Positions 1-50,393 of a DNA stretch of 64,000 nt are shown here, piece after piece. Under the pieces are notes generated by a model. The model was given only the letters and a program-made list of their open reading frames with translations. It was not told the DNA's origin and ran no database searches. Positions within the stretch are counted from its first letter, which is position 1. Every line of letters begins with the position of its first letter. Origin of the DNA: Bacilli bacterium (GTDB lineage Bacteria > Bacillota_I > Bacilli_A > RFN20 > CAG-826); the NCBI GenBank assembly GCA_035361955.1, contig DAOSDC010000005.1:32987-96986 (forward strand), in the 5' to 3' direction. A program made the position numbers and the translations under genes.

Positions 1-271
1 ATGAAGTGGATGTATTGATCGGAGAGAGCCATAAACCGTTGATACCTAAATCCGACAAATATTCGAGTTTGTCAGCGATGCCCTTAAAGTCACCAATGCC
101 ATCATCGTTGCTATCGGCGAACGAGTAAACGAGCAGTTGGTAATATGTTCGATATTTGGTCGGAACCGCTTGTGGACTCGGATATAAATCGGTTGTTGAG
201 GTTGCGCAACTTGCTAACGAAAACAAGGCGATTAACATGATCGCGACTGGGTGTTTGAGTTTAATATTCAT
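1..271 (-). CDS. Partial (5' end only; continues past the left window edge) GH13 alpha-amylase-family lipoprotein
   Basis: Minus-strand translation from the ATG at 271 gives MNIKLKHPVAIMLIALFSLASC (lipobox LASC), then YQLLVYSFADSNDDGIGDFKGIADKLEYLSDLGINGLWLSPI, the hallmark N-terminal motif of GH13 enzymes. An AAAGGGG RBS lies 7 nt upstream. Not in the ORF track because it has no stop in the window. Confidence 0.6.
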   Translation of the reverse strand, partial: MNIKLKHPVAIMLIALFSLASCATSTTDLYPSPQAVPTKYRTYYQLLVYSFADSNDDGIGDFKGIADKLEYLSDLGINGLWLSPINTSTS

Positions 272-8454: not shown

Positions 8455-8984
8455 TTGGTAATAACGGTTTCCTTTCGGATTTTTTTCTCAAGATCAAGCA
8501 GTTTCACTTGGTCACGATTTCGTTTGGTGTCCGAACGCAAACTGTATTTCGTCAAATATTTGTAAAGGCGCCATAAGTTCTTAACGTCAAGTACCGCATA
8601 CGAGGTGGCGTCGCGATTGACTTGAAGCGGATTTTCGTCTTGAAAACCGGCTTCTTTTTTCCAATACGATTGTTTGGCGATTTCGACTTCAACGCCGTTT
8701 TTCTTAAAAGCCAAATAGGGTTTGGCGACGCGTTTATATCCAGCTTTGCGAAGCAATAACGGCAGTTGATCACCACCGACAATCTCATCGTTTAACAGCA
8801 AATCGACGTCTTGGGCATCATAATCTTTATCAAGTGCCAACTCGACGCCCAACGAGCCGTATACGACGGGGTGAACCCCAAAACGACCTTCGATTAAGGT
8901 CACGACTTCGTGCAGTGTTTGATAAACGACTTGTCGATGTCCGTTCATACTTTGCCTATCGATTCGACGCTGGCGCGTTTCCAT
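8451..8984 (-). CDS. Small nucleotidyltransferase-fold protein (ANT(2'')/Lnu-like size and motif)
   Basis: 177 aa. YGSLGVELAL-x9-DVDLLL fits the G[SG]-x(9-13)-DxD Pol-beta nucleotidyltransferase motif. Overlaps the downstream EAL gene by 4 nt and the upstream GGDEF gene. Confidence 0.45.
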   Translation of the reverse strand: METRQRRIDRQSMNGHRQVVYQTLHEVVTLIEGRFGVHPVVYGSLGVELALDKDYDAQDVDLLLNDEIVGGDQLPLLLRKAGYKRVAKPYLAFKKNGVEVEIAKQSYWKKEAGFQDENPLQVNRDATSYAVLDVKNLWRLYKYLTKYSLRSDTKRNRDQVKLLDLEKKIRKETVITK

Positions 8985-10117
8985 GCGCTCTTATTAGATT
9001 TTTTTGCCATGTACAGTCCTTCATCGGCCAATCGGTAATAAGTGTCGAAATCAGTTTTTGCATCTGGTATTAGCGTCACGATACCGATACTTACGGCAAG
9101 CGTTAAACCATGTTCGGTAAATTTCTCGTGCTTGACGAGGTTGATGATATCCTCGGCTTTGACTTCCGCTTCTTTTTCTCCAGAACCTGGAAGAATTACC
9201 GCGAATTCGTCCCCGCCAAAGCGACCAATCGTTTGGCAACCACTCATCAATGGTTTCAATAAGTTGGATATTTGCGTCAGCACCTGATCCCCCGCCATAT
9301 GTCCGTGGGTATCGTTGACTGTCTTAAAATTGTCGATATCAAACATTAAAAGCGATACCGGTTGGTTGGATTCGCGTGCTTTGTTGATGCAAGTCGTGCT
9401 AATGTCTAAAAATGTTGCCCGGTTATTGATTTGTGTCAACTGATCGATATGTGCTAATTCTAATAGCACGGCGTCGGTCTTTTCCTTGCTCATCAAGATG
9501 AAACCGATATTGGTGACAATCATGTGGGCGAACAATAGCGTGTACATTAACTGATTGATCGGGCTTGTCGACAACACCGTTAAATCGACCCAACCGAAAA
9601 AGGCGTTGATGCCCCGGAACATCATGATGACGATGACCGTTACGTAAATGATAGCGAAAAATGCTTCCAGCGATGTGCGTTGCTTACGCCGTAATATCGT
9701 GATCGGGGGTCCAATCAGCAATAGTGTCCCGATGAGTGAGAAAAAGAATATGCGTCGCGGTTCCGTGTTCCAAAACAGCACGATCGACAGAAAGAACAAA
9801 ACCGAGGCGATGATAAAGCCCGTATACAAGTTTCGAATCCAACCTTTAAATTCGTCATGCAACGAGATGATTGCCCACGCCTCAAAGAATAGACCGACGA
9901 ACATACTCGTGTTGGCAAAAACTTGCACAATCCAAGCCGGCAACATCGGTTGTAGCATAAATAGCGTCCAGGCCACAGATTGAAACATCTTGGCAATGAT
10001 GAACAAAACTTTGTGAAGCGTGTCTTGCTTCTTAAACACATAGGCGAACAAAAACAAACCGGTAAATAAATTCCCGATTGTAATTAACAAGATAATGGTT
10101 GCAACATCAATTGTCAT
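8945..10117 (-). CDS. Membrane sensor diguanylate cyclase (GGDEF)
   Basis: About 6 N-terminal TM helices. C-terminal GGDEF domain with intact RFGGDEF, DIDNFKTVNDTHGHMAGD and RxxD-like elements. Confidence 0.8.
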   Translation of the reverse strand: MTIDVATIILLITIGNLFTGLFLFAYVFKKQDTLHKVLFIIAKMFQSVAWTLFMLQPMLPAWIVQVFANTSMFVGLFFEAWAIISLHDEFKGWIRNLYTGFIIASVLFFLSIVLFWNTEPRRIFFFSLIGTLLLIGPPITILRRKQRTSLEAFFAIIYVTVIVIMMFRGINAFFGWVDLTVLSTSPINQLMYTLLFAHMIVTNIGFILMSKEKTDAVLLELAHIDQLTQINNRATFLDISTTCINKARESNQPVSLLMFDIDNFKTVNDTHGHMAGDQVLTQISNLLKPLMSGCQTIGRFGGDEFAVILPGSGEKEAEVKAEDIINLVKHEKFTEHGLTLAVSIGIVTLIPDAKTDFDTYYRLADEGLYMAKKSNKSAWKRASVESIGKV

Positions 10118-24072: not shown

Positions 24073-25134
24073 TTATAAATATTTTTTCGGATTGTCTTTG
24101 CCTTCAAGCACCGCGAGCACGGCTGAGGCTAACGATTGCAGTTCTTCTTCGCCTGGATAGACAAATACCGGAGCAATCCATTTGACCTTTTCGGTCACGC
24201 TATCGATGAATAGTTTGCCATGACTAATGCCACCGGTTAAAAGTATGGCGTCAACCTTGCCGCTTGTTGTCGTCGCCATCGCCCCAATGTATTTGGCAAA
24301 CTGATAAACAAACGCGTCGAATATAAGTCGGGCATGTTCATCTCCTTGCTCGATCATCTTCGTGACTTTTCTTAAATCGTTGGTGCCCAGGTGAGCCATA
24401 AACCCGCCCTTGCCCCTTAAGAATGCTTGCATTTGCTTTAAGTCATACTCGCCAGAATAACATAATTCAATCAATTGTTTGCATGGTAAAGCCCCCGCTC
24501 GTTCGGGTGAGAATGGCCCATCGCTGACGGCGTCGGTCACATCGATAACGCGTCCATGTCGGTGCATGCCAATTGAGATGCCCCCTCCGGCATGGCCGAC
24601 GATAAGATTTACTTTTTTATAATCGAGCCCATGCAATTTACAGTGTTTACGAGCAATCGCTTTATGATTAAGCGCATGGAACGTCATTGGGCGCGATAAA
24701 AACGGTAATCCGGTTATCGTGGCGATTTCATCGGCTTCAAACGTGCTGGGTGGGTCGGTGATAAATGATGGGATATGATACATTTGCCCAAGTTCATAAC
24801 CAATCAGTGAAGCCAGATTGCTTGGATGTTTAAAATTTGAATTTTGTGAATCTTCCAAGATGCGGTCATTAATCGCATATGTTCCGCTGGGCACAAGGTT
24901 AATGATTCCACCACGACAACTAATCGCCGAAAAGTCCTCAATTTTGATATTTGCGTCTTTTAGCGCCTTTTCGATCACTTGACGACGAAATGAGATTTCA
25001 CTTTCGAACGTCGTGTTTTTGGCCTGCTCTTCGGGCGTATGCATCAGGTTATACTCTTTGATGATTTTGTCATCTTCGAAAATGCCAATCTTCGTCGAAG
25101 TACTGCCAGGATTGATAGCCAATATTTTGTGCAT
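24073..25134 (-). CDS. buk: Butyrate (short/branched-chain fatty acid) kinase
   Basis: N-terminus MHKILAINPGSTSTKIGIFEDDK matches the butyrate kinase/ASKHA pattern. 353 aa. Confidence 0.88.
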   Translation of the reverse strand: MHKILAINPGSTSTKIGIFEDDKIIKEYNLMHTPEEQAKNTTFESEISFRRQVIEKALKDANIKIEDFSAISCRGGIINLVPSGTYAINDRILEDSQNSNFKHPSNLASLIGYELGQMYHIPSFITDPPSTFEADEIATITGLPFLSRPMTFHALNHKAIARKHCKLHGLDYKKVNLIVGHAGGGISIGMHRHGRVIDVTDAVSDGPFSPERAGALPCKQLIELCYSGEYDLKQMQAFLRGKGGFMAHLGTNDLRKVTKMIEQGDEHARLIFDAFVYQFAKYIGAMATTTSGKVDAILLTGGISHGKLFIDSVTEKVKWIAPVFVYPGEEELQSLASAVLAVLEGKDNPKKYL

Positions 25135-25240: not shown

Positions 25241-26083
25241 TTAGCTGATGGTGTGTGTGCCAACGGTGTGGACAGCGGGGTTTCCTGTCGTGTAGGAGGC
25301 ATAGCTCCATTCGAGCGGATTGAATGAGTATAGATAGTCGGTTCCACCGATATTGAACGTATTAACGCTGGGACTGTGAATTGAAGGAATTCTTGTGAGG
25401 ACGGCATCCATGGTATTGCCACTGCCATTTGCAAACGTGGCGTTCCAAGCTGTGCCAGGATCAAACCCAATCGTTCCAAATGCATCAATCAAGACATCGC
25501 CAGAGCCATCATTTTTGAATAGACCAAACGCATCATCGCCGTTATGATTGGCGACATTGGTACCGGTCGATGTTCCTTGATCATAAGATCCTACCCATTT
25601 GCGGGCAACAGGAACGGCATTGACGGCAGCTAATAATCCGGTATCAAATGTGTCTGAAGCGACGTTATAAAACACGAACGTCTCTCCCGGCTCTAGCGTG
25701 CCTTCCATCGTCTTCATAATGTTAGAACTCGCTAAGTCGCGGCCATTTGAGAACAATTTAACCGTGTATTTTGTTAAGTCAATCGTTGTTGATGTCGGGT
25801 TGTAAAGTTCCAATACTTTATTCGTTCCCGGACCTTCAATATATTCCGAGAAAAATAAATCGGGTTCTCCTACCGGGATCGGTTCTGAAGAAGGAAGCTC
25901 GCTTGACGATGGTGTTGTTGAGGTTGGCGTAAGCGATGAGGTTACCTCTGATGAGGGGATTGCCGATGATGGTGCTTCAGATGTCGGCGTTGACGAAGAC
26001 GGGACGAGGGAACTGCTTTGGCATCCCGATAAAAATAGTGTTAACAATAATGCGCTACCGAATGTGATTTTCTTATTAAACAT
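25241..26083 (-). CDS. Lipoprotein with a lamin-tail (LTD) domain and an S/T/P-rich linker
   Basis: Lipobox LSGC. An S/T/P-rich low-complexity linker, then EPDLFFSEYIEGPGTNKVLELYNPTSTTIDLTKYTVK, which resembles the LTD motif (ISEI..G..N.fvELyN.t...vdLsgw.l). Confidence 0.55.
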   Translation of the reverse strand: MFNKKITFGSALLLTLFLSGCQSSSLVPSSSTPTSEAPSSAIPSSEVTSSLTPTSTTPSSSELPSSEPIPVGEPDLFFSEYIEGPGTNKVLELYNPTSTTIDLTKYTVKLFSNGRDLASSNIMKTMEGTLEPGETFVFYNVASDTFDTGLLAAVNAVPVARKWVGSYDQGTSTGTNVANHNGDDAFGLFKNDGSGDVLIDAFGTIGFDPGTAWNATFANGSGNTMDAVLTRIPSIHSPSVNTFNIGGTDYLYSFNPLEWSYASYTTGNPAVHTVGTHTIS

Positions 26084-26198
26084 AATTAATACTCCTTACC
26101 CTATAAGGCTAAAGGAATGCCGAGTGCATGTCAAACCTCTCTAATAATTATGCTGAAATAATTGCCTTGTAATCAAAATACACATGAAATAGTTTAAT

Positions 26199-27479
26199 TT
26201 ACAAATTCGATAATAAAGATGTCGTCAAGTGATAAACATCCGTATTGTCCATGACCCCAGTTAGTTTTCCATAATGATCTGGTGTTAAGCCCCAGCAATA
26301 GAAGGGGACATTGGATGTTGTATGTGTCGTTGTGGTCCAAGTCATTTTACTCAATATGTTTTCCGAATTAGCTCCATCATCGATAAGAAGGCCACCGGTT
26401 TCATGATCGGCAGTAACAATAATTGCCGTATCAGTGCGATTACTTGCCCATTTAAGGGCAACTTCGAGGGCTTGATCCATTGCTAATAATTCAAGAATCA
26501 TTGCTTCCGACAAACCATCATGCGCTTTATGATCAATTGCTGCTCCTTCAACACCCAAGAAAAAACCATTCTCGTTATTATCCAAAAAATCTAGTGCAAA
26601 TGTAGTCAGTTTATCAAGACTTGATCCAGTACCAACTGCCGGAATTGCTGGTAAAGCAGAGATAATTCGATTGTGCTGTTTTGACAATCCAGACATCTTT
26701 CCAATTGAGGTGAATCCTTTACTAAGGAAATTTGTTTCATACAAAGAATCAAAATCCCTAGGTGCAATTCCCATTATTAAATCGGCTTTGGATTCTGTCA
26801 TATTAGCCATAATATTCGCGTAATTGTTTCTACTAGTAGCATAAGAAAGGAAGCCCGCCGGGGTTCCTCCATATAAAGTATCACTTGTTAAAAAACCACT
26901 TCTTACTCCAACCTCGTTTAGTTGATCAATAAAGTTAGGAAGCACTTGTCCTGTGCCATTCATACGAACAGAACCATTGAAGACTTTCGTTCCAGTAGCC
27001 ATCGCTGTTGCTGCAGCGGCGCTATCTGTATAACCACTTGATAACGAATTTGTTGTCATTTCTGTTTTTAAAGATGCGGAATCAATCGCTAAAGACGTCC
27101 CTTTATAAAGGGTTGCCGCCTCAATATGTTCGAATCCCATACCATCACCAATAAACAAGATAACGTTTTTAATGCGGTCAGATACTATAGGTGCATAAAC
27201 GTCATACGAAGAATCATCGATTTCACTGCTTGATTGACTACTTGAAGTTATTTCACTACTTGAGTTTGCTTCACTAGTGCTCTCATAACTTGTTTCGCTC
27301 GAAGATGAGGAAACAACACTGCTTGTTGCAATGATAGAGCTTATCTGCGAATTGCTTGAAGTTACTGAAGAACTAACTACTTCAATCGACGAGGAGACAA
27401 TCGAAGATTGACAGCCCGATAATCCTAAAACGATAAGCATTAAGACGACATAGATTCTCGTTCTCAATTGGTTTTTCAT
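26199..27479 (-). CDS. Alkaline phosphatase (PhoA family) lipoprotein with a Ser-rich linker
   Basis: Lipobox LSGC. VILFIGDGMGFEH and DSAAAATAMATGTK (Ser-nucleophile motif, DSAA). The probable start MKNQ lies 5 codons inside the GTG-initiated ORF-track entry. Confidence 0.85.
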   Translation of the reverse strand: MKNQLRTRIYVVLMLIVLGLSGCQSSIVSSSIEVVSSSVTSSNSQISSIIATSSVVSSSSSETSYESTSEANSSSEITSSSQSSSEIDDSSYDVYAPIVSDRIKNVILFIGDGMGFEHIEAATLYKGTSLAIDSASLKTEMTTNSLSSGYTDSAAAATAMATGTKVFNGSVRMNGTGQVLPNFIDQLNEVGVRSGFLTSDTLYGGTPAGFLSYATSRNNYANIMANMTESKADLIMGIAPRDFDSLYETNFLSKGFTSIGKMSGLSKQHNRIISALPAIPAVGTGSSLDKLTTFALDFLDNNENGFFLGVEGAAIDHKAHDGLSEAMILELLAMDQALEVALKWASNRTDTAIIVTADHETGGLLIDDGANSENILSKMTWTTTTHTTSNVPFYCWGLTPDHYGKLTGVMDNTDVYHLTTSLLSNL

Positions 27480-27480
27480 G

Positions 27481-29808
27481 TCATCGCACCTCACTTTCTA
27501 TATCGAGTTCTCGTGGTGGGATGAACAGAGGCTGACGTATTGCGGAATATGGTCGCGGAGTTCCAAAAAGATAGGTTCCGACGACACCTCCGCGATAATA
27601 AAAGACGGTTCCGTCAGGATACTTCCATAGTCCGGCTGTATCTCTGAGTTCTATTGTTGGGGTTTTTACGACGCTGCTGGTACTGCTGAAAATTGCGTTA
27701 TACCAGTGATCAGGGGTTATCTCTGTTGAATAAAGCATGAATCCACCAAAATTTCCCTCATAAACCATCGTATAGCCAGGCCACACATTATTGGTTCCGC
27801 TGCGCCAAAAATAAGCAAAGTAATTGGGGGCGCTGACTTGGGTCTCAAAGAAATAGGTGATCGTGTTGGGATATTCTATGTCTGGAATAGTATATGGGCG
27901 TTCAGTTCCAAATAAATAACCATCAACTTCATTGTTGATCTCATAGAATATCGTACCTGTTGGATAATCGAGTAGATTGACATACTCGGTAAAGATTGAA
28001 CTGTTGTTGTTAACAAATCTAATCTCTGACCACATGCTGCTACTAAACTCGATTTTGTAAGTCCTAACTCCATCAATGTCCGTATCATATAACGCCATGA
28101 CTTCACCAGGCCATCCGTTGTTAATGGCCCCGTCTCGTAAGAAGGCATATTGAATTCGAGCGGGGTTCTTGGTCTCAAAGTAATATGTCAGGTTCGTGAT
28201 AGTTGGTTCATACGCAAATGTTGAATAACCACTTCCGTCAATATAAAAGGCAGTGTTTTCAGGATGTGAACCGAGTGGTATTTCGGGTGTTTCATGATAG
28301 ACTCCTTCAGCATCATAACCTCTAAAGATGACATAATTGAAAGTTCTTGTAATCGTGGCTTCATATAAGTACTTGTTATCGTTGGTCATTTCAACGAAGG
28401 TTAGCGATGTCGGTCCCAAAACAATTCCATCATAAAAATAAGCATAAAAATCGATTCCAAGCAGTGATGTCGAAGCATAATAGTACTTAATTTCTTCAAT
28501 CGCATCTAATAGATAATATGTATAGGCTGACGTGGCCGTGTTATTAATCGTCTTAAAACAGACGCCGGAGGGAAGACCGCGTAAATCAAGACTTGGAGTT
28601 TTTAGCAGGCCGGCACTAGAATCGTGGAAAATTATGTAATAAAATTCTTCCTCCATCATTGTGATTCCAAAGATTCGGCGACCATTGGATAATGTTTCAA
28701 TATAATTGGCATTAACGCCTGGCCATGCCGCATTTTCATGAGTTCCTCGATAAGCATAGGCATAGATTGTTGGAGAATTTACGGCTACTTCGTAATAGTA
28801 AGTTGCCAGTTTGCCGATGTTTTCAGGAATGTTCCCGCTTGCATAATCAAAAGCAAAATAATTGCCACTCTTAGTGTAAAAACACCATTTTTCACCCAAA
28901 TCATCATTTGAGTAATTTGATAAATCGATTGATGGCGTTGTTGGAGATCCTTCTGGTCCACTAAACTTGACGTAGTCAAAAATTCCTTTTTCTACCGTAA
29001 TTTTAAACATTTTCATCGATTCAAAATCCGCTAAAAATTCCATGTCGATACCTGGCCACATGTCCAATAACCGGATTGATGTCGTCCAAAAATACGCTTT
29101 AACGGTCTCTGTTTGATATGGACTTAAGAAATAGTAATCAATTGTTTCATCCCCATCATAAATGGTGATTAAATCATTGGGGTCTATCGATGAGGAAGAA
29201 TCAAGATTTAAGAGTTTGATGTTACGATGATATTCATTAAAGTCTTCTGGGGTGAAAATCAATTCATAGCTTCCGGCTCGGCGAAATACATGCTTACTAT
29301 TATTGATGTCAATGCCCCATTTAGTCGCGTGCGGGCTTAAATGATTGATAATCTGAAATTCTTCTTGATTATTAGCACTTACTTGAATTTTATATGTTAA
29401 TACCTCGGCGTCATAATCGCGAACGAGCGGTATTGCTGTCGATAAATCGTAATTGGTTGATTGAGAAATGTAATAGTAATCACCAATTGTTGAATCTTGG
29501 CTAGGATTCCATCGAGGATACAGGATAAGGTTGCTCATGACTGGTGTTTCAAACACGTACGGGTAAGTGAGTGCAAAATCTTCGTACCATCCTTGGAAAT
29601 CAAAACCCGCTTTCACCGGTGTCGAAGGACGTGCGATTGGTTCGCCTTCGCGAACGCGTATATTTGGCAGATTCGTGTCATGAAAATAAACACTATAGAA
29701 GGTGTCGCTATTGCTCTCTAGCGCCAATCCCGGCGCAAGATTCCCGCCTTGTATGATTAAATAGCACGCAATGATTCCAGTGAATATTTTCCCAACCGTT
29801 TTTTTCAT
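27481..29808 (-). CDS. Cell-surface protein: signal/anchor, one Listeria-Bacteroides (Flg_new-like) repeat, then five ~95-aa repeats resembling CBM25/CBM26 starch-binding modules; no catalytic domain
   Basis: N-terminal FDFQGWYED motif. Repeats share the pattern arom-x-Y-F-W..G...WPG..M....Y......Y.IIF.......KTP.I.L (e.g. YFAYFWRSGTNNVWPGYTMVY..YNAIFSSTSSVVKTPTIELRD), the consensus shape of CBM25/26. The true ATG (MKKTVGK) is 6 codons inside the TTG-initiated ORF-track entry. Confidence 0.55.
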   Translation of the reverse strand: MKKTVGKIFTGIIACYLIIQGGNLAPGLALESNSDTFYSVYFHDTNLPNIRVREGEPIARPSTPVKAGFDFQGWYEDFALTYPYVFETPVMSNLILYPRWNPSQDSTIGDYYYISQSTNYDLSTAIPLVRDYDAEVLTYKIQVSANNQEEFQIINHLSPHATKWGIDINNSKHVFRRAGSYELIFTPEDFNEYHRNIKLLNLDSSSSIDPNDLITIYDGDETIDYYFLSPYQTETVKAYFWTTSIRLLDMWPGIDMEFLADFESMKMFKITVEKGIFDYVKFSGPEGSPTTPSIDLSNYSNDDLGEKWCFYTKSGNYFAFDYASGNIPENIGKLATYYYEVAVNSPTIYAYAYRGTHENAAWPGVNANYIETLSNGRRIFGITMMEEEFYYIIFHDSSAGLLKTPSLDLRGLPSGVCFKTINNTATSAYTYYLLDAIEEIKYYYASTSLLGIDFYAYFYDGIVLGPTSLTFVEMTNDNKYLYEATITRTFNYVIFRGYDAEGVYHETPEIPLGSHPENTAFYIDGSGYSTFAYEPTITNLTYYFETKNPARIQYAFLRDGAINNGWPGEVMALYDTDIDGVRTYKIEFSSSMWSEIRFVNNNSSIFTEYVNLLDYPTGTIFYEINNEVDGYLFGTERPYTIPDIEYPNTITYFFETQVSAPNYFAYFWRSGTNNVWPGYTMVYEGNFGGFMLYSTEITPDHWYNAIFSSTSSVVKTPTIELRDTAGLWKYPDGTVFYYRGGVVGTYLFGTPRPYSAIRQPLFIPPRELDIESEVR

Positions 29809-29949
29809 AATAAAAGTTCCCCACAAATGGAATAAGACTAATAAAAGTATCTCATTGTGAGATATTTTTATGTATTCATGGTTTGCTGATATATGTTGAA
29901 ATAGTGCTATTAGAGAAGAATGTATTTAAGAAACAAAACGCAAGTGATG

Positions 29950-30876
29950 TCACTTTTGTGACAATATACGATATTTATTTGGTGTCAGTCCGCTGTTATG
30001 TCGCTTAAACACTTGGATAAAATAACCGGCATTACTAAATCCAACTTCTTGAGCAATTTCATCTAAAGATAAATCGGAACGTGTCAATAATGCTTTGGAA
30101 CGGTTAATAGACATTTCGTTTATAAAATCATTTATTGTGTTTCCCGTATGTTTTTTGAACAGACGCGAAAAATGAAATTCGCTATATCCAAATTTTTCCG
30201 CAAGTTGTTTGATTGTGATTCGTTCACTTAAATGCTCACTTAGAAAAGCCGCTGCTTTTTTTATCATTCTCAATTGATTCGTTTGCGGTACAAAGACATG
30301 ACTTTCCTGAAGATAGCCAAAACGAGCCAGATTGAAAAACAAAGCATACATTTCGCTTTTTATGAGCATTTCGAACATTTTTGGTTTTGTCTTAAGATTA
30401 TCCTCAATAGTAATAATCCGTTCGATAATAAAATCATAACCAGGATCTCCTGGATGTAGTATTTCAAAAATAATTGTTTGCCCTTCCCGTAATGGTTTAA
30501 AAACCGCTTTTTCTACCAAATCGTTTTCATGTCCCGATAGTAAAGATAAGTCGAATACGATGGCGTTGATTGTTAAGAAGTCCGCACCCATCACTTGACG
30601 AATTTGATGTAATTCATTTCTTGACACAAAAACGATGTCACCTGGATGGACATTGAAAATATGTCCATCTATATAAACATCAGCTTCTCCTTTAATAACA
30701 TGCATTAGCTCGAATTCTTTATGCCAATGAAGATAACAATTCTTAAAACCAGAATAAACAGATTCATAAAGACGAATAGGAAATTCTGGCTCACCGTGCT
30801 TTTTGTTTTCGTAATAGTTTGCGTCGACGCCCATGATACTATCTTTATTAATAATAAAGTTGGCTGTTGATACCAT
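29950..30876 (-). CDS. AraC-family transcriptional regulator (cupin sensor plus HTH_AraC)
   Basis: C-terminal AraC HTH (ITIKQLAEKFGYSEFHFSRLFKKHTG...SLDEIAQEVGFSNAGYFIQVFKRHNSGLTPNKYR) and N-terminal cupin-like domain. Confidence 0.85.
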   Translation of the reverse strand: MVSTANFIINKDSIMGVDANYYENKKHGEPEFPIRLYESVYSGFKNCYLHWHKEFELMHVIKGEADVYIDGHIFNVHPGDIVFVSRNELHQIRQVMGADFLTINAIVFDLSLLSGHENDLVEKAVFKPLREGQTIIFEILHPGDPGYDFIIERIITIEDNLKTKPKMFEMLIKSEMYALFFNLARFGYLQESHVFVPQTNQLRMIKKAAAFLSEHLSERITIKQLAEKFGYSEFHFSRLFKKHTGNTINDFINEMSINRSKALLTRSDLSLDEIAQEVGFSNAGYFIQVFKRHNSGLTPNKYRILSQK

Positions 30877-30969
30877 GCAATAGGTCAGTTCATATAAAAT
30901 TTAACTTTTGTGCGAAATAAAAGCGGCAAATATAATACCGCTTCTATCAATATTGTTTTAATCTTTCGT

Positions 30970-32142
30970 CTAATTAGTTCGTCTTTGTCGTATTTTTAAG
31001 TATAAGGCAGCAAACGCGGCCATTGTTGCAAATCCAAAGACAATCATTTCCAGTGTTGATTTGCTGTAATTTTGATTTACAAACCCGACCTCTGGACCTT
31101 CGGGTATGGCGTTGTATAGATATTCCATCATATCCCATTTGTCTTGGACTGGAACCGAACTCGTTTTTATTACGTCGCTCTTGTAATTGCCGTCTTCAAT
31201 ATCGGTTTGTTCGTGATCAATTAGTGTCAAGGAAGAAAGATCGGTAGATTCAAGGTTGTTATACCAATAAGTTTCTAAATTGGCCCAGGCTCCATATCCA
31301 TTTAGTGTGCTGTCTGTGCATGTTGTATAACCTTCAAGGACTTTCGCAAAAGCATCGGTCCGAATATTTGTGGGGGCAGCATCAACTACTGGTGCACTTC
31401 CTTTTGTGGAGGTAGGTAGGGCATACAATTTATAATGATTGGACGAAATGCCCGTCGTTGATCCCTTTGTTCCCAAATCAGTTGGAATATTAAGTGAATA
31501 AACCTGCCAATAACCCGAACTCACGGGAATATCTGCATAGTAATATGAAGCGCTTCTAGAATCATCAATACTAAAATAATTTAAATAGTAATGGGTATTG
31601 TCATCAACGCGTAAAGTAAGTGGATATCCTTGACTACCATACCAATTTGCAAAGTAATTAGTAATCCATATTCTCATCGTGGTTGGTGAAGAATGAAGAT
31701 GGGCTGATGGCTTGTCGGTTTTGGCAATCGGTTCATTACTGGAATTAACCATGAACATTATGCTAGTGGCGCTATAGGTGATTGAACTCGATGTGGCTAA
31801 CAATTCATCGGACGAGTTGTATTTCGAAAAAGTGAATTGGGTTACATCGTTTGGTAAATCAAAGTACCACATGAATGTGGTGGTGGATGAACCAGCGCTT
31901 GTAAGATCCAAAACCATTTCTGAAGTTGTCGGGATATCATCTGTGGTGTAGTTTATTTTCATAACTTCGCCAGATGCACCCCAAACAGAACTTGATGTAT
32001 TACCAAAAAAGTGCACTCTCTTTGTTGGTTCTGTCACGACAGCGGCGTCTACTTTGATGGTTGCATCGATTGCTGGTTTTGTGCTTATTCCGAAAAGCAG
32101 TACCATGCCGCAAATTGCTACAAGCATTGACATTTTTTTCAT
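30970..32142 (-). CDS. Secreted protein with a C-terminal TM anchor, unknown function
   Basis: N-terminal signal peptide, a T/S-rich mature region and a C-terminal hydrophobic helix followed by KIRQRRTN. Confidence 0.45.
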   Translation of the reverse strand: MKKMSMLVAICGMVLLFGISTKPAIDATIKVDAAVVTEPTKRVHFFGNTSSSVWGASGEVMKINYTTDDIPTTSEMVLDLTSAGSSTTTFMWYFDLPNDVTQFTFSKYNSSDELLATSSSITYSATSIMFMVNSSNEPIAKTDKPSAHLHSSPTTMRIWITNYFANWYGSQGYPLTLRVDDNTHYYLNYFSIDDSRSASYYYADIPVSSGYWQVYSLNIPTDLGTKGSTTGISSNHYKLYALPTSTKGSAPVVDAAPTNIRTDAFAKVLEGYTTCTDSTLNGYGAWANLETYWYNNLESTDLSSLTLIDHEQTDIEDGNYKSDVIKTSSVPVQDKWDMMEYLYNAIPEGPEVGFVNQNYSKSTLEMIVFGFATMAAFAALYLKIRQRRTN

Positions 32143-32443: not shown

Positions 32444-34015
32444 ATGAATAAGAAAGCAATTGCCGCTATCGCCGTCATGAGTATCAGTTTTTTGGGCTAT
32501 ATGGTGGGGGTGTTTGCCCCCCAAAAAGAGGGGCGCCCAGTTTCTAAAATCAATGATTATATTTACACTCAAGTGAGCGATGGATACAAAATTGCCAAAG
32601 GGGCTTCATTCATCGGTCGCAGTGAACTATATCTACCAGCGGAGTATGATGGACAACCAGTGACTGAAATTGCCGCGAATGGATTTGAAAATGCCAATCT
32701 ACGCGTCGTTTATGTGCCACCCTCAGTCAAGCGTATCGGTCAATATGCGTTTAAAGATAATCCGCTGCTTGTTTATATGGAAATACCTTCATCAGTGATT
32801 ACCGTCGGGCAACGCGTATTCGAAGGTAATATTCATAATGCAACCTATGTGCGCATTGGAGGTCAACACGCTGGTACGCGCTGGTATGCCACCTCTGATG
32901 CTTGGCGCTACACGGGCACTGGCACCGATCAAGTAGCCAATGTCTGGTATGAAGTTGGCTATAAGCTTGAGTATGAGAAGCCCGATTACCATGAGATCAG
33001 CATCAATACCGTAACATACGATAAAGACGGCAATGAAGTATCAGCCATCGGCGTGGGCACACGAGTAAAACAAATATTGACGTATGGTGATGAGCACTTA
33101 GAAATAAAATTGGAAAACGATTCCGTGACCTGGGTTCCTTATAACACGGTTTCGCTCAGGAATAACCAACACGCCTTTGTTCACAAACAGATTTACGCCT
33201 CGATGACATACCTCAATCCATTTGATACGCAATCAGCCACGCTGAGTAATTACAATAACGATTACCGTAGCATTGATGCTAACCTTCACAAATTAATCCG
33301 CATCATTGCCATGGATTACCGGCTTGAACGAGATATCATGGATTATGATATCTTCCACAAAATTAATTATTATCTTGTCGAAGTCGAATCCGGGGAAGTT
33401 GGTTGGGTGCGTACAGAACACATTCTCCACGAACGTTTTAAACCAGCATTAGCGATTGGGTTTATATTTCATCCGCTTCGTAATTTCTTCGTGCTAGGCG
33501 AATCGGGCGTCTTCACTTTAATTGCGTTTTTGCTATTCTACTATGCACCGTTAATTGCTTTCGGTCTGGGAATTCGTTCATTGGGCAATGCGTTAAGCGA
33601 AAAAATCAATGGTAATAAACTGTTCAAAATAATGCTGATTGGCATCACGGTGTTTCAAATAATCTTGTTCCCATCGCTCGTAAGCGCCTATTATTCATTT
33701 AATTCATTCATGGGTATTTTATTTGCTTTTGGTGGGTTGGGTTTTACGACATTAATGTATTGGGCTGTAGCCCGTGGTATTCCAAACCGTCGTCTTTGCC
33801 CCAACTGCAATATGTGGGATGGCGTCATTCAAAACCAATATGTTACTAAAAAGTGGAATGAAACGACAACAACGACGACAACAACGACATATACGGATGG
33901 CTCTCAAAAAGTCGACCGTGATTGGAAGACCGAGAAGAAACAAGAAACCATGTATGATTGCGAGTGCCCCCACTGCGGAGAAACTTGGAACTTCACCGAA
34001 GTTGGCAGTCGTTAA
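32444..34015 (+). CDS. Membrane protein with a BspA-type leucine-rich-repeat-like ectodomain, multi-TM region, poly-Thr tract and C-terminal Cys4 zinc-ribbon
   Basis: N-terminal TM. LRR_5-like stretch (EIAANGFENANLRVVYVPPSVKRIGQYAFKDNPLLVYMEIPSSVITVGQRVFEGN). About 4 TM helices, then CPNCNMW...T10...CECPHCGETW. Confidence 0.5.
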   Translation: MNKKAIAAIAVMSISFLGYMVGVFAPQKEGRPVSKINDYIYTQVSDGYKIAKGASFIGRSELYLPAEYDGQPVTEIAANGFENANLRVVYVPPSVKRIGQYAFKDNPLLVYMEIPSSVITVGQRVFEGNIHNATYVRIGGQHAGTRWYATSDAWRYTGTGTDQVANVWYEVGYKLEYEKPDYHEISINTVTYDKDGNEVSAIGVGTRVKQILTYGDEHLEIKLENDSVTWVPYNTVSLRNNQHAFVHKQIYASMTYLNPFDTQSATLSNYNNDYRSIDANLHKLIRIIAMDYRLERDIMDYDIFHKINYYLVEVESGEVGWVRTEHILHERFKPALAIGFIFHPLRNFFVLGESGVFTLIAFLLFYYAPLIAFGLGIRSLGNALSEKINGNKLFKIMLIGITVFQIILFPSLVSAYYSFNSFMGILFAFGGLGFTTLMYWAVARGIPNRRLCPNCNMWDGVIQNQYVTKKWNETTTTTTTTTYTDGSQKVDRDWKTEKKQETMYDCECPHCGETWNFTEVGSR

Positions 34016-34148: not shown

Positions 34149-36503
34149 ATGAACAAACGAGCCTTCGTATCCCAACTCATCTTCTTCACGCTGGTCATCA
34201 GCTATACGATTTTGTATTCCCTGCTTTATTTCGTGCCGGCGATAACGTATTTGCACCGAGCGTTTTTGATGTTGGGTTTCTTCTATTTGGTGCTGTTTTG
34301 GTTTTTGAATGATTTTGGTGAACGTTCGCCACTTGTCAAATGGACCACCAGCGCGGTGCTAATCACGCTTCTGGCCCAATTTGTTATTGAGTTGGTCGGA
34401 CTCCATGAATTCGTCCACGCCAATCCAATCTTGAACTTCATCGTCCATTTCTTATTCGGCATCGCATATTTCATTTTTGCGCTCAGCGTGTTCAAAGAGT
34501 CGTTCATACAGGCGACAAATCGCCATATTCGCAAAGCTTCGTTTGATTATAATGATGCGGTTTTATTCGATTATGACAAACGGAAACGGACTATCGATAT
34601 TCAGTTTTCGCAATCCTTTTGTGACAAGTACAAATTGGAACATCCATCGTTGTCCTTGAGCGAAGTGGAGTTTCGCCAACTTGTCGTTCAAGAAGATTTA
34701 GCAAAATCGAATTGGTTTGACGAACGGCTGCCTCATGATGCCATCATTAATCAAAAATACCATGTGAATTTTTCAAATATCCCGACGAGTGTTGCCCTTC
34801 AAGTCAAAGGATCATATCAAGTTAACACACGCGTTGTTGTGTTGGCGTTTGATGTCAGCGCACTAGAAACCGCGGAGGCTGATTTGCTATCGTCTAATTC
34901 ACGCCGAATTGAACTACTAGAAAATTTGCCACTCGGTATTATTGAGCAAAAACCGATTTTTGATGATAAAGGTGTATTTATCGATTATGAATACATATAT
35001 TGCAACAAAGCATTTGGACGGATGACCGGCTATCCGCCTGATGTCGTTGTTGGAAACAAAGCCTCGGTCATCATCCCCAATCAATACAAAGAACGCATCA
35101 CCAAATTCGGACAAGCGATTCTCGATGGCAAATCGGTATCGTTTGACACGACGATTCAACCGATAAATCACACATTCTCGGTCAATGTATATCCCACCGT
35201 AAATAAAACGTTCATCTCGATTTATAAAGACATCCACCAACTTAAAGTGCTAAACGAACAACTCCATTATTTGGCGACGCACGACAAGATGACAAACTTG
35301 TACAATCAGCGCGGCCTTCTGGAAATGCTTGAGGAAAGAACAGACATTAAGACGGCGGTCTGCTTTTACGTTTCCATCGGCAATTACGAACGAATTTACG
35401 ATTTTTATGGATATACGTTTATTGAAGGTATTCTCAAACAGTTATCGGATGCCTATATTCCTTATATTCGCTCCGGCCATCTCGTGGCCACGACAAGTTC
35501 CAGCGATTTAATCGTGTTGTTAGTCAATCCCACAAGCAAAGAAGTCAATCAAGCATTAGAAGCCGCGCGCGCCAGCGTCTACCGCAAGATGACGATTGAA
35601 CATACGCAAGTGCTCGTCAAACAAAATATCGGTTATGCAGTGCTTGGCGAACACGCCGATAATATTCAACAGTTAATCGCCTGCGCGTCGTTGGCGATGT
35701 CAGAAGCCGCTTCAAGCGAACACAACATCATCGTCAAATACGTACCGAAACTTAAAGAAACGCTTGAGCACAACATCGCCATGGCTAACAAGCTCGATGA
35801 AGCGCTTGAAAATGGCCTGATTCGCATCGCCTTCCAAAACATCGTCGATTCGCGAACGGGTGAGGTCGTGCTATTAGAAGCGCTGGCCCGCTGGACCGAT
35901 GACAAAATGGGTTACATCGCTCCCGATGTCATCTTTGAATTTGCCAAAAAATCGAACATGATCGATTTACTTGATGACTATTTGCTTGAAAACACACTGA
36001 AAGAATATGCGAGACTTAGGCAAAAGGGTGTGACCGGCCGCTTATCATTGAACGTGTCGGCACCAGCATTTTTGCGCGCTACATTCCGGCGGACCGTCAT
36101 TGAAAAGGCCAAAGAATACCAACTTACGCCAGATAGTATCGTCATTGAGGTATCAGAAACGACATTTGTGCGCAACATCGAGCAAACGATTGCGATGATT
36201 AAGAATTATAAAATCGATGGCTTTCTAATTGCCATTGACGATTTTGGGAGCCAATATTCGTCAATCGGCATTCTAGACTTAATTCCTTACGATTACTTGA
36301 AACTAGATGGTATCTTCGCCAGCCGGCTCGGATCAGAAAATATTAAAGAGTTAATTCGCGTCCTCGTAAGCATTACTGAACGCGACAATGGTCAAATAAT
36401 CGCTGAGAAGATTGAAAATGAAGCGATGGTCGCTTTAATGCAAAATCTCGGCTGTCATATCCATCAGGGCTATCACTATCACCGTCCACAAATATTTGAA
36501 TGA
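34149..36503 (+). CDS. Membrane sensor with PAS, degenerate GGDEF and EAL domains (c-di-GMP phosphodiesterase)
   Basis: About 6 N-terminal TM helices and a PAS-like region. The GGDEF-domain region lacks the GG[DE]EF signature (SSSDLIVLL). EAL domain has LLEALARW, EVSET and IAIDDFGSQYSS. Confidence 0.8.
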   Translation: MNKRAFVSQLIFFTLVISYTILYSLLYFVPAITYLHRAFLMLGFFYLVLFWFLNDFGERSPLVKWTTSAVLITLLAQFVIELVGLHEFVHANPILNFIVHFLFGIAYFIFALSVFKESFIQATNRHIRKASFDYNDAVLFDYDKRKRTIDIQFSQSFCDKYKLEHPSLSLSEVEFRQLVVQEDLAKSNWFDERLPHDAIINQKYHVNFSNIPTSVALQVKGSYQVNTRVVVLAFDVSALETAEADLLSSNSRRIELLENLPLGIIEQKPIFDDKGVFIDYEYIYCNKAFGRMTGYPPDVVVGNKASVIIPNQYKERITKFGQAILDGKSVSFDTTIQPINHTFSVNVYPTVNKTFISIYKDIHQLKVLNEQLHYLATHDKMTNLYNQRGLLEMLEERTDIKTAVCFYVSIGNYERIYDFYGYTFIEGILKQLSDAYIPYIRSGHLVATTSSSDLIVLLVNPTSKEVNQALEAARASVYRKMTIEHTQVLVKQNIGYAVLGEHADNIQQLIACASLAMSEAASSEHNIIVKYVPKLKETLEHNIAMANKLDEALENGLIRIAFQNIVDSRTGEVVLLEALARWTDDKMGYIAPDVIFEFAKKSNMIDLLDDYLLENTLKEYARLRQKGVTGRLSLNVSAPAFLRATFRRTVIEKAKEYQLTPDSIVIEVSETTFVRNIEQTIAMIKNYKIDGFLIAIDDFGSQYSSIGILDLIPYDYLKLDGIFASRLGSENIKELIRVLVSITERDNGQIIAEKIENEAMVALMQNLGCHIHQGYHYHRPQIFE

Positions 36504-42768: not shown

Positions 42769-44586
42769 TTAACCATTGATATATGCGATGAATCCCGCCA
42801 TCATGAACAGCGATTTCTCATCGGCTTGACCTTTGCGCAATTGTTCGACCATATCCTTAACCTTGTCGTAGCGGGTCTTCTCTTTCTCCTCGGGCACGAC
42901 ATGGACATTCATGCTCGATTCTTTGCTGACGGGAATGTATTCGACCCAGTGGACGGGCACCATATGCGTACGACCATCGCCGCCGAGGCGGGCAATATAC
43001 TCGGTCCGATTGATCGTTTTATACCCGTATGAAGTAACGGTAACCGTATCGCAGAAATTTCCGCTTTTGACGATTGACGTCTTCAAGATGTTACGTGTGC
43101 CCGATAGCGGATGAATGAAGGCGCTGGCGTTCATGGAGTTGGCGACGCGTTCGTGTTCATAGAAACACACATAACTGTCGTACAAGTCTTTGTAAATGTA
43201 TTCATGCGGTTTTTGCTGTTGATATAGCGGGATTGCCAATAGTGGCGCTAGCGCAAAATACATGTCCTTTAAGAACCGGTCGTTATAGGAGACGAACTTG
43301 ATGCGCATCGCTTCCAGGTCATAACCATAAAAATATCCGGCGACATCATTGAGATTGGCGGTTAAAAGATGCTCAGGGATCACGGTGTTGATCATCTTGT
43401 ATTTAATGAAATCAAAATTATCGCCATACCCAATCGTCTTATCTTTCATTAAATGGAGCAACTGCTTTTGAGCAAGTGGCGTAAACAGTAATCGAAACTG
43501 CGTTTCGTGGTTGCGGTCGCGCGCACCAAACAGCACTTCAAATTCAGAGTTGGCCATGACAGTGTAGTTGGTGCCTTTGGCAATGCTTTTTTCGGCTTTG
43601 CGGTTAAGTTTCTTAATGTCGCGATCGACCTTGCGTTCGATTTGTTTCTCACTCATTTTTTCGGCATCGGAATCCTGCCGGTGGAAAATCAAATCCGGCG
43701 CGGCTTCGTTTCCATAAACGACATAAGGCTGTTCGTGGTAATACGGGCATGGCTTTTCAAGCGATGCCGTTAATACTTGGCTATGATATTGGGTCACCCA
43801 TTGTCCGTTGACGCGGCGCTGGGTCGTCCAGGTGATGGTGATTGAACCGGTGTAGACTTTCGTGCCCAGCCGATGGACTAAATCGCGGCCAACGTAAAAC
43901 GGGTTGCCGTTAATTTCTCCCGATTTAATGAATAGCGCCGATCGGTTGATGTCGTTATTGTTGCCAAGACCGAATTTGCCGACTAGATAGTCATAACGTT
44001 TGCTATCAAACATCGGATCAATTCTAATCAGGGGAATCGTCTTGCGCATCAGCTCGACCGCCATGCCATCGTAAAACAAATTGTTAAGGGGCGCCATTTG
44101 TTCGTAGGCGACGCGAACTAGTTCGTTGATCTCGGTTTCCAGCACGCGTATTTCTTCGGCCAACCGTTTGATGTGGGGGTTGACGACTTTGATTAGCAGG
44201 ACAATCGCCAGTATTAAGAAGATGGCACCACCGGCCATCATTAGGATTTGATAAAGTTCTAAAAGACCTCCGCTGATGGCCAGATAAAGGCCAACTCCTA
44301 ACGAAGCGATTGACAGGACGATTAGTATGATAAGAAAAACTTTTTGTGTTTGATATTTAGTCTTTTGCTTATTTGATGCGGCTTTTTTCGCTTCCAGCTT
44401 CTTGATTTCGGTAACCGTCTTCTTGTTCGCCTCGACATCTACTTGCGATTTAGCGACTAGCTCGTCAAAAAACTCTTCAGCGTTTTTGTGATGGGCGTCT
44501 TTATACCGACGCGCATATTCATCAAGCGGCTCGTAAATGTGTTCGGGTTCGGTATCGATGGTCGCCGTAATCGTGTTGTTATCCAA
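42769..44586 (-). CDS. Large membrane-anchored protein (605 aa) co-transcribed upstream of LemA; unknown function
   Basis: N-terminal cytoplasmic coiled segment, two TM helices (residues ~85-135), then a ~450-aa domain. A 43-nt gap separates it from lemA. Confidence 0.5.
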   Translation of the reverse strand: MDNNTITATIDTEPEHIYEPLDEYARRYKDAHHKNAEEFFDELVAKSQVDVEANKKTVTEIKKLEAKKAASNKQKTKYQTQKVFLIILIVLSIASLGVGLYLAISGGLLELYQILMMAGGAIFLILAIVLLIKVVNPHIKRLAEEIRVLETEINELVRVAYEQMAPLNNLFYDGMAVELMRKTIPLIRIDPMFDSKRYDYLVGKFGLGNNNDINRSALFIKSGEINGNPFYVGRDLVHRLGTKVYTGSITITWTTQRRVNGQWVTQYHSQVLTASLEKPCPYYHEQPYVVYGNEAAPDLIFHRQDSDAEKMSEKQIERKVDRDIKKLNRKAEKSIAKGTNYTVMANSEFEVLFGARDRNHETQFRLLFTPLAQKQLLHLMKDKTIGYGDNFDFIKYKMINTVIPEHLLTANLNDVAGYFYGYDLEAMRIKFVSYNDRFLKDMYFALAPLLAIPLYQQQKPHEYIYKDLYDSYVCFYEHERVANSMNASAFIHPLSGTRNILKTSIVKSGNFCDTVTVTSYGYKTINRTEYIARLGGDGRTHMVPVHWVEYIPVSKESSMNVHVVPEEKEKTRYDKVKDMVEQLRKGQADEKSLFMMAGFIAYING

Positions 44587-49349: not shown

Positions 49350-50393
49350 CTAATCAATCATGTCGATGATGAATGCGTATCCGATTTCGCTAAACCCGAT
49401 ATATGAAACTTCTTCTTGAAGAAAATCCCATTCAAAAATCATAAATGGCGTTGAACCGAATAACCCCGCATTAAACAGAAATCCTTCGGCGCACTGAAAG
49501 CCGAGATAGTATTTATTTCCAGCGCTGCTGGCATCGATAAATCGCGGTGTGCTGGTCAGATCTTGTTCTTCTAGCAAATTGACAATCGTTTGCCCGCGTG
49601 CCGATAATCGCATGAAATCAACGAATTCAATCGATTGGAACGATTGTTCGTTTTTAGTTATATCCAGCGTTTCGTTGTTAATAACAAGTTCATATGTGTC
49701 TGGTCCATCAACCACTCGTAGTTCATGATGTACTTCGCTTAACGTTCGAAAACTAGCGCTCGTCGGTGTCCCATTTACGAAATCATAGGCATCGATGACA
49801 TAGGTATCGCTTGTGTCGCGGTAACGGTAGAAAATACCGTCGCTGACAATGACTTGATACATGTCGTCAATCGCGGCAAATGTGGTAGTGGTTGCCGTTT
49901 CCAAATCATCGTATTCAAGTTGCAATAACGAATGATTGTCGTTGCGATAGATCAAAATATGATCACTATCCGCGAAGATGCGCGGATAATGTTCGTTGTC
50001 AATCGGATCAATTTCTAAAACATACATCGCGTCCATGGTCAATAAATCGATAGTCAATAAATGAAAACCGGTTATCATCTCGGTCATCGTCTCGGCAAAC
50101 ATAACGAATAATGTTTTCTCAATATATACAACTTCAGGATATAGCGAACCGTCGGCCGGAGTTACGTCATTGGCAACAAGCTGGGCGCCGATTAGTGATT
50201 CAATATTATATGTCTGATTATCAATATTGATTTGATAATCCGAGGCGATGAACGCATATCCTGTTTTCTCGACCGGGAGTTCCGATAGCGTCTGATTGAA
50301 ATCGGCATAACGGTTTTCACAACCCGACAATAACGTCAGCGATGCTGCAGCGATGATGGCGAATAGTCGCGGTCTGATTAGTTTATATTTCAT
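49350..50393 (-). CDS. Hypothetical lipoprotein (347 aa)
   Basis: Lipobox LLSGC. No recognised domain. Confidence 0.45.
   Translation of the reverse strand: MKYKLIRPRLFAIIAAASLTLLSGCENRYADFNQTLSELPVEKTGYAFIASDYQINIDNQTYNIESLIGAQLVANDVTPADGSLYPEVVYIEKTLFVMFAETMTEMITGFHLLTIDLLTMDAMYVLEIDPIDNEHYPRIFADSDHILIYRNDNHSLLQLEYDDLETATTTTFAAIDDMYQVIVSDGIFYRYRDTSDTYVIDAYDFVNGTPTSASFRTLSEVHHELRVVDGPDTYELVINNETLDITKNEQSFQSIEFVDFMRLSARGQTIVNLLEEQDLTSTPRFIDASSAGNKYYLGFQCAEGFLFNAGLFGSTPFMIFEWDFLQEEVSYIGFSEIGYAFIIDMID

Follow-up and report, generated by a model that had tools for sequence, protein, structure and literature searches.

We analysed a gene on the reverse strand of a 64,000-nucleotide stretch of DNA from a Bacilli bacterium (contig DAOSDC010000005.1 of assembly GCA_035361955.1, positions 32,987 to 96,986; hereafter the window). 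The gene, at 27481..29808, encodes a protein of 775 amino acids with a signal peptide and five tandem repeats of carbohydrate-binding module family 26 (CBM26), and is referred to below as the CBM26-array gene. Translation probably begins at the ATG at 29808, and the stop codon of the gene occupies 27481-27483. The TTG at 29826, from which the program-made list of open reading frames (ORFs) gives the span 27481..29826, is a mere upstream extension. The length of 775 amino acids is also given by gene callers on identical contigs, and the sequence is identical to that of the database protein P0001, which NCBI calls 'InlB B-repeat-containing protein [Bacilli bacterium]'. The protein has few close orthologues: a search of 5.8 billion clusters gave three, and the scan of GTDB genomes yielded one related locus only.

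The signal peptide (29719..29808, reverse strand) covers residues 1 to about 30 and consists of MKKTVGK followed by a hydrophobic core, with a cleavage site, read by eye, predicted between GLA and LE. Residues 4-30 form the sole hydrophobic 19-mer region in the whole protein. Since this lone segment is N-terminal and there is no second one, the protein is predicted to be secreted. Next comes an InlB-type B-repeat (Flg_new / List_Bact_rpt; 29518..29664, reverse strand, residues 49-97), which matches Pfam PF09479 with E-value 2e-10, scores 41.1 bits against a gathering score of 27 when the whole protein is scanned, and matches the B-repeat of internalin B in the PDB (2y5p) with E-value 0.003. 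It is followed by a beta-rich region of about 120 residues with no assigned family (29149..29517, reverse strand, residues 98-220). For this region Pfam gives only DUF6882 (E-value 0.16, 12.2 bits with a cut-off of 23.9 bits), and a sequence search of the PDB returned nothing relevant. It is 65% identical to the corresponding region of the orthologue from locus L013. The region is too short to hold a GH13 domain, and the possibility that it hides a sixth CBM26 module was rejected (hhalign probability 0.4% against the CBM26 profile).

The five repeats are arranged in tandem on the reverse strand, with about 100 residues in each: R1 (28840..29148, residues 221-323), R2 (28510..28812, residues 333-433), R3 (28201..28497, residues 438-536), R4 (27889..28200, residues 537-640) and R5 (27544..27870, residues 647-755). 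Their pairwise identity is only 18-36%. Nevertheless, they are homologous, far beyond chance. Each repeat is found by the profile of the other four with 18-66 bits, the lowest score (18 bits) belonging to R3, whereas the best score in a control of about 500 shuffled repeats never exceeded 11 bits. The alignment of the repeats shows the motif string Y-Y-F ... AY.W ... WPG..M ... IIF ... KTP.I.L, in agreement with the consensus aromatic-Y-F-W ... WPG..M ... IIF ... KTP.I.L noted in a preliminary description of this DNA.

The whole protein matches the Pfam family CBM26 (PF16738) with 48.6 bits, the cut-off being 28.1. The repeats scanned alone score 17.4 bits (R1), 24.3 bits (R2), 13.3 bits (R4) and 16.1 bits (R5) with the same family, and no other family outscores CBM26 on any of these four; R3 alone has no Pfam match. 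Because no single repeat passes the Pfam cut-off, a profile was built from the five repeats of the window only. Among PDB sequences this profile finds the CBM26 at the C-terminus of Ruminococcus bromii Amy10 (E-value 4.6e-5) and the CBM26 of Sas6 (E-value 0.36). An exhaustive search of 1.84 billion representative proteins produced 565 matches at E-value <=1e-3. The 97 best of these were scanned with Pfam, and 96 contain CBM26. A deeper profile that includes these matches finds Amy16, Amy10, Amy4, Amy13K and Sas6 at E-values from 4e-26 to 1e-8. The preliminary description had called the repeats CBM25/26-like. The CBM26 half of this name stands, whereas CBM25 (PF03423) and also CBM41 (PF03714) have no match to the isolated repeats even at E-value <=10. 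Fibronectin-III and Big domains, which had been considered as folds that would speak against carbohydrate binding, have no Pfam match to single repeats at the same threshold and do not occur among the top fold matches. By sequence, the repeats thus belong to CBM26, not to CBM25 or CBM41.

Structural modelling agrees with this assignment. The AlphaFold model of R2, made with the deeper alignment, has a predicted local distance difference test score (pLDDT) of 92.2 and a predicted template-modelling score of 0.85. Its eight best Foldseek matches in the PDB are all starch-binding: CBM25 modules of Paenibacillus and Bacillus halodurans (2lab, 2laa, 2c3w/x), Sas6, and domain 1 of Sas20. The CBM26 modules of Amy13K and Bacillus halodurans stand lower in the list. 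The matches have probabilities of 0.9-1.0, template-modelling (TM) scores of 0.5-0.6, and E-values from 7e-3 to 0.3. The modelled fold of the repeats is the beta-sandwich of CBM25 and CBM26; the CBM25 matches therefore reflect a fold common to both families and not membership in CBM25. A full-length AlphaFold model (three orthologues) was not relied on, as its mean pLDDT is 53.8 and residues 1-220, including the beta-rich region, fall below 50. The CBM26 tandem of Amy13K takes rank 2 in the Foldseek list of this model, mixed with generic Ig-like arrays.

In Sas6 the ligand stacks on Y55 and W63 and forms hydrogen bonds with Y53, K101 and Q103 (bioRxiv 10.1101/2022.11.20.514607). Mutation of the equivalent of W63 in a Lactobacillus module (W32 of LaCBM26) abolishes binding (bioRxiv 10.1101/2022.11.20.514607). 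The stacking positions were read off the HMMER alignment of the repeats to Sas6. The residues at the positions of Y55 and W63 are W and W in R1, Y and W in R2, Y and L in R3, R and W in R4, and W and W in R5. Both stacking aromatics are present in three modules of five (R1, R2, R5). In R3 the WPG motif is replaced by VLGPT and the stacking tryptophan is gone; in R4 the stacking tyrosine is changed to arginine and the tryptophan is kept. Because of these kept and lost residues, we infer three competent predicted sites, in R1, R2 and R5, and two weakened ones, in R3 and R4. The platform pattern is invariant across four orthologues, whose overall identity is 69-81%. The best-conserved parts of the protein are R2 (85% identity to the L013 orthologue) and R5 (78%), R2 being the most conserved repeat; R3 is the least conserved one (62%).

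The preliminary description had stated that the protein has no glycoside hydrolase domain. This is borne out: at E-value <=0.1 on the whole protein Pfam finds CBM26 and Flg_new alone, with no catalytic domain, and separate scans of the pieces at E-value <=10 added nothing but sub-threshold, chance-level matches (SET_assoc, DUF6882). Such an architecture is not unusual in metagenomes, as only 9 of the 97 scanned relatives of the repeats contain GH13; Flg_new also occurs in 12 of them. Few of these enzyme-less CBM26-array proteins have been characterised. On the other hand, the term 'surface protein' used in the same description is an assumption, since the search for anchors of several types found none. 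The signal peptide is the only hydrophobic segment, so that a C-terminal transmembrane helix is lacking; an LPXTG-like motif is absent, and the Pfam scan gives no anchoring domain of the SLH, LysM or GW type. A lipoprotein reading of the string GIIAC in the signal peptide was also rejected: three orthologues lack the cysteine, although GLAL[ED] is preserved in them.

The gene belongs to a conserved cluster transcribed in one direction. The first gene (30970..32142, reverse strand) encodes a 390-amino-acid protein that has a signal peptide, is anchored in the membrane at its C-terminus and belongs to no known family. It has no Pfam or NCBIfam match and just five relatives in the 5.8 billion clusters. 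A hidden CBM26 module was considered here too and rejected (hhalign probability 0.1%, and nothing relevant in a PDB sequence search). The second gene (29950..30876, reverse strand) encodes an AraC-family regulator with a cupin sensor domain and two helix-turn-helix motifs. It lies directly upstream of the CBM26-array gene on the same strand, in keeping with the AraC link of the preliminary description, and the adjacency is kept in loci L001 and L013. The best NCBIfam matches of the regulator (AryK, PocR, AraC, RhaR, MelR) are all far below the equivalog cut-offs, and none reaches the level that would mark a maltose- or maltodextrin-responsive regulator of the MalR or MelR type.

Downstream of the CBM26-array gene lies the gene of a lipoprotein alkaline phosphatase of 426 amino acids (26199..27479, reverse strand). 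Its translation contains the motifs DGMG, TDSAAA, IDHKAHD, TADHETGG and TTHT, and the D-S-A and DHET columns are invariant. The phosphatase ATG (27479) follows the CBM26-array stop codon TGA after 1 nucleotide, and its ribosome-binding site GAGGTG sits inside the end of the CBM26-array gene. This arrangement indicates that the two genes are translationally coupled. Next is a lipoprotein with a lamin-tail domain (LTD; 25241..26083, reverse strand, Pfam LTD E-value 1.5e-13), which follows the phosphatase both in the window and in L013, and then, on the same strand, butyrate kinase (24073-25134).

The order 390-amino-acid protein, AraC, five-module CBM26 protein, phosphatase is kept in the window, L001 and L013, and the 390-amino-acid protein stands beside the AraC and CBM26-array genes in all three lineages examined. 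L001 carries an 81% identical orthologue of the CBM26-array protein. L013 is more distant, with 69% identity for this protein and 55% for the 390-amino-acid protein. No further CBM26 genes were found in the window.

The spacer between the AraC and CBM26-array genes is 141 nucleotides long. The preliminary description had placed two inverted repeats there, in the promoter region. Both exist, TATCTCA-ttg-TGAGATA at 29848-29864 and TGTCAC-tttt-GTGACA at 29948-29963. However, the latter had been placed at about 29929. It in fact overlaps the AraC stop codon (29950-29952), at the end of the coding region, and thus does not lie in a promoter. A regulatory role for these repeats is not supported. Perfect repeats are common in the window (11 with a 7-bp stem and 3-nucleotide loop, 42 with a 6-bp stem and 4-nucleotide loop), neither of the two is palindromic in the orthologous locus L001, and the left arm of the first one is not conserved. 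The spacer contains two conserved blocks, whereas the flanking intergenic sequence has diverged. The 28-nucleotide block TAGCACTATTTCAACATATATCAGCAAA (29882..29909, reverse strand) is identical in the orthologous spacer and unique in the window. The 18-nucleotide block AATGAGATACTTTTATTA (29839..29856, reverse strand), also identical in the orthologous spacer, covers only the right arm of the TATCTCA palindrome together with a -10-like TATTA(G/A), read by eye. These blocks are better candidates for an operator and a promoter than the inverted repeats.

The window has 56 ORFs with 150 amino acids or more. Beyond the cluster genes, 29 of these were scanned, and none of them is a gene for starch or maltodextrin use; scans for Rfam families and tRNAs found nothing in the window. 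The GH13 lipoprotein that the preliminary description had brought into connection with the repeats is real: 90 codons of its N-terminus are found at 1..271 (reverse strand; Pfam Alpha-amylase E-value 5.6e-14, lipobox LASC), and the full protein on the parent contig has 528 amino acids. However, it is 27 kb away and does not belong to the CBM26 cluster. Left of the window on the parent contig (L009, 12752-20984), the genes that come after the GH13 lipoprotein encode a WG-repeat protein, three GH32 proteins and fructokinase. Because of the GH32 genes and fructokinase, this carbohydrate locus is likely to serve fructan and not starch.

Some other features of the region were observed. The G+C content is 0.37-0.40 over the surface-protein cluster (26000-32000), as compared to 0.43-0.49 in most of the window. 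At 32444-34015 on the forward strand, divergent from the cluster, lies the gene of a protein of 523 amino acids. It combines a BspA-type leucine-rich repeat (LRR) with a hydrophobic region that is multi-pass and a C-terminus rich in Cys, which has a weak match of CapR type. The lipoprotein encoded at 288-1358 (reverse strand) is an Endonuclease I whose linker has a run of more than 40 serines, and the LTD lipoprotein (25241-26083) resembles the N-terminus of the ExeM nuclease. Together with the alkaline phosphatase, these two lipoproteins suggest lipid-anchored extracellular scavenging of nucleic acids or phosphate. Three cyclic-di-GMP proteins with GGDEF or GGDEF-EAL domains, one of them also with PAS, are encoded at 6802-8454, 8945-10117 and 34149-36503, a notable number in 64 kb of a small-genome, mollicute-like, lipoprotein-reliant Bacilli metagenome-assembled genome (MAG). 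Succinyl-CoA ligase subunits adjoin 2-oxoacid:ferredoxin oxidoreductase at 52602-57267 (reverse strand), and the contig also encodes rubredoxin; with butyrate kinase, this set fits a strictly anaerobic fermenter. Proteins of 605 amino acids (42769-44586, reverse strand) and 347 amino acids (49350-50393, reverse strand) match no Pfam family at the thresholds used.

We consider the product of the CBM26-array gene to be, with a probability of about 0.6, a secreted, non-enzymatic, multivalent protein that binds alpha-glucans (starch, glycogen or maltodextrin). In R1, R2 and R5 the Tyr/Trp platform would hold one short turn of alpha-1,4-glucan per module, R3 and R4 being probably weak sites or spacers, and several weak sites on one chain may provide avidity for polymeric or granular alpha-glucan. 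The gene is predicted to be transcribed with the gene of the membrane-tethered phosphatase, and probably also with that of the LTD lipoprotein, under the likely control of the upstream AraC-type regulator. The array may capture alpha-glucan for a cell whose lipid-anchored hydrolases, the phosphatase and the distant GH13 lipoprotein, have no binding module of their own.

A number of observations weigh against this interpretation. The single repeats all remain below the Pfam gathering score, even the best of them, R2. The platform is degenerate in two modules of five (R3 and R4), and the Gln of the usual hydrogen-bonding motif QT.D is K, T, E or F here. No anchor was seen, which makes the benefit of a freely secreted binder to the cell hard to account for. 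Neither the conserved cluster nor the annotated parts of the window contain starch or maltodextrin genes, and the sole GH13 protein seen, 27 kb away, is oligo-1,6-glucosidase/TreS-like and scores below all equivalog cut-offs. Finally, the synteny is seen only in close relatives (69-81% identity) and may be due to shared recent descent and not to selection.

A rival explanation is that the CBM26 fold has been re-purposed, so that the protein would be an adhesin or envelope protein binding another ligand, such as the own surface polymer of the cell, an exopolysaccharide or the 390-amino-acid protein. The sub-threshold Pfam scores and the cluster without starch genes are consistent with this. The losses in the platforms of R3 and R4 are fixed in all orthologues, the protein has an InlB-type B-repeat at the N-terminus, and the BspA-type LRR protein and other surface proteins are encoded nearby. 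The membrane-anchored 390-amino-acid protein co-occurs with the array in all three lineages, and the lineage is environmental, a relative having come from agricultural groundwater (PMC5383146). However, R1, R2 and R5, the most conserved repeats, retain the whole stacking pair without variation, and the repeats have as their nearest sequence relatives true CBM26 modules, found in amylases and amylosome proteins, the best fold matches being starch-binding modules of CBM25 and CBM26. Besides, no CBM26 member that binds anything but alpha-glucan is known to us. Such re-purposing therefore seems unlikely, and binding of alpha-glucans remains the preferred interpretation.

In other respects the CBM26-array gene adds a fairly ordinary new member to a class already known; the Bacilli lineage from which it comes is anaerobic, environmental and uncultured. 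Only one trait is unusual, namely the pairing with an alkaline phosphatase and not with starch-degrading genes, and proteins joining the two functions in one chain were found elsewhere. P0010, the fifth-best match of the window-repeat profile if the window protein is counted, has six CBM26 modules, an alkaline phosphatase and a dockerin; P0039 has an alkaline phosphatase, three CBM26 modules, Big domains and SLH. Both are related to the phosphatase of the window (phmmer E-values 2e-43 and 1e-46, respectively). Proteins P0250, P0264 and P0297, of about 475 amino acids, have one N-terminal CBM26 and an alkaline phosphatase. A calcineurin-like phosphoesterase is present in 5 of the 45 top matches of the repeats, in three cases with a dockerin. 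The set with CBM26 fused to a PhoA-type alkaline phosphatase or a calcineurin-like phosphoesterase comes from other Firmicutes metagenomes, consists of several proteins unrelated to one another, and includes P0010, P0039, P0250, P0264, P0297, P0016, P0042 and P0043. The fusion proteins have no recorded names.

On the other hand, no CBM26 was found, fused or in flanks of up to 10 kb, in any of 80 metagenomic loci, with a total of 853 kb, that encode members of the phosphatase subfamily. Among the 120 closest homologues of the phosphatase, fusion to CBM26 is seen in only 3. CBM26 is also joined to proteases, CotH, LRR and other secreted proteins. The neighbourhoods of the fusion proteins P0264 and P0156 contain housekeeping or unrelated genes only. 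In the literature searched, we found no paper linking CBM26 or amylosomes with alkaline phosphatase or phosphoesterases, and no description of the fusion architecture. The link between CBM26 and the phosphatase is real for this clade and sporadic elsewhere; it is not a general rule.

One possibility is that the array and the phosphatase constitute a phosphate-scavenging module, in which CBM26 holds phosphorylated alpha-glucans (phosphate esters of starch or glycogen) or glucan-rich particles beside the membrane-anchored phosphatase, which dephosphorylates them. This would be a bacterial, extracellular, two-polypeptide counterpart of glucan phosphatases that combine a carbohydrate-binding module with a phosphatase. 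The tight coupling of the two genes, their adjacency in three lineages, the conserved catalytic motifs of the phosphatase, the independent fusions with P0010 ranking so high, and the calcineurin-like phosphoesterases among the top matches all point in this direction. However, the module is as doubtful as re-purposing of the fold, given the loci of the phosphatase subfamily and its closest homologues, where CBM26 is absent or rare. As CBM26 also occurs on proteases, CotH and LRR proteins, the fusions may have no other role than to hold a secreted enzyme at the starch particle. The specificity of alkaline phosphatases is broad, action on glucan phosphate esters being only postulated, and neither the uninformative neighbourhoods of the two fusion proteins nor the literature searched ties CBM26 to alkaline phosphatase.

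A narrower variant makes the array and the lipoprotein phosphatase a two-component extracellular 'glucan phosphatase' that strips phosphate esters from starch or glycogen. It would harvest phosphate or make the glucan digestible, and the CBM26-phosphoesterase fusions would be its fused form. The absence of CBM26 from the 80 phosphatase loci lowers this variant, and the literature searched contains no bacterial extracellular glucan phosphatase; it is improbable, even more so than the general scavenging module. If true, the pairing would be an undescribed step in microbial starch breakdown, although the support is thin and the pairing is rare. Most of the interest of the locus comes from this recurring pairing, in an operon here and in fusions elsewhere.

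Finally, the assignment to the Sas/amylosome class made in the preliminary description, which would make the protein a scaffold assembled with amylases via cohesin-dockerin pairs, can be practically dismissed: the repeat profile and fold do resemble the CBM26 of Sas6 and domain 1 of Sas20, and dockerins occur in 20 of the 97 scanned repeat relatives, but the defining feature contradicts it, as no Dockerin_1 or Cohesin domain was found in the protein (Pfam E-value <=0.1) or in the scanned neighbours (E-value <=0.1 or 1e-3), there is no anchor, the sole GH13 seen has no dockerin, so that no dockerin-bearing GH13 amylase was seen, the enzymes around the gene are lipoproteins, which is a different route of cell retention, and the organism is a MAG of the class Bacilli and not a Ruminococcus-type clostridium.

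The alpha-glucan-binding protein proposed here can be compared with several known systems. Glucan phosphatases laforin and SEX4/LSF2 (PMC5215930 and PMC5779698) combine CBM20 or CBM48 with a dual-specificity phosphatase. They share with the window the combination of a starch- or glycogen-binding module with a phosphatase, and serve as an analogy for the glucan phosphatase variant only. They are intracellular, single-chain eukaryotic proteins with the dual-specificity fold, whereas in the window a lipoprotein of its own carries the phosphatase, a metalloenzyme of the PhoA type with no known glucan activity.

The alpha-amylases of Lactobacillus amylovorus, L. plantarum and L. manihotivorans have four or five C-terminal CBM26 repeats. 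The best PDB sequence matches of the repeats are also from amylases, namely CBMbc of Eubacterium rectale Amy13K (6b15) and the modules of R. bromii Amy16, Amy10 and Amy4 (9qf9, 9qf8, 9qf3), and Amy13K has the highest TM-score to the R2 model (0.60). The amylase arrays resemble that of the window in having head-to-tail CBM26 modules of about 90-100 amino acids each, which give the amylases multivalent starch binding. However, all of them are attached to a GH13 catalytic domain, which the protein of the window lacks.

Non-catalytic starch-binding proteins help to decide which bacteria hold and use insoluble alpha-glucans, and the characterised examples come almost exclusively from gut Ruminococcus (Sas6, Sas20) or Bacteroides (SusE/F). 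SusE and SusF are non-catalytic, have several starch-binding beta-sandwich domains and act beside membrane-tethered amylolytic enzymes. Unlike the protein of the window, they are lipoproteins of Gram-negative polysaccharide utilization loci, belong to other carbohydrate-binding module families, and their genes adjoin those of starch enzymes and a transporter. The SusE/SusF pair of Bacteroides thetaiotaomicron is mentioned in PMC10826348.

Further parallels are in R. bromii. Sas6 (PDB 7uwu/7uww), composed of CBM26, BIg, CBM74, BIg and a dockerin, is likewise secreted and non-catalytic and has a Tyr/Trp platform in its CBM26. It is found by the deeper profile with E-value 1.4e-8 and is the second-best fold match of R2 (24% identity, probability 1.0). 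However, it has one CBM26 together with CBM74 and is attached to the amylosome by its dockerin. The protein of the window has five CBM26 modules and an InlB B-repeat, no CBM74, BIg or dockerin, and its gene is in an operon with a phosphatase. Sas20 (PDB 7raw) is also a non-enzymatic starch binder, with a CBM26-like domain 1 (fold probability 0.95), but it is a dockerin-bearing amylosome component with another second domain and no tandem array. By analogy, the protein of the window would work like Sas6, Sas20 and SusE/F, being a member of the CBM26 family and not of the amylosome or Sas class. The same solution seems to be built otherwise here, from five CBM26 modules with neither a dockerin nor a lipid anchor, which extends a known class and would not, by itself, be surprising.

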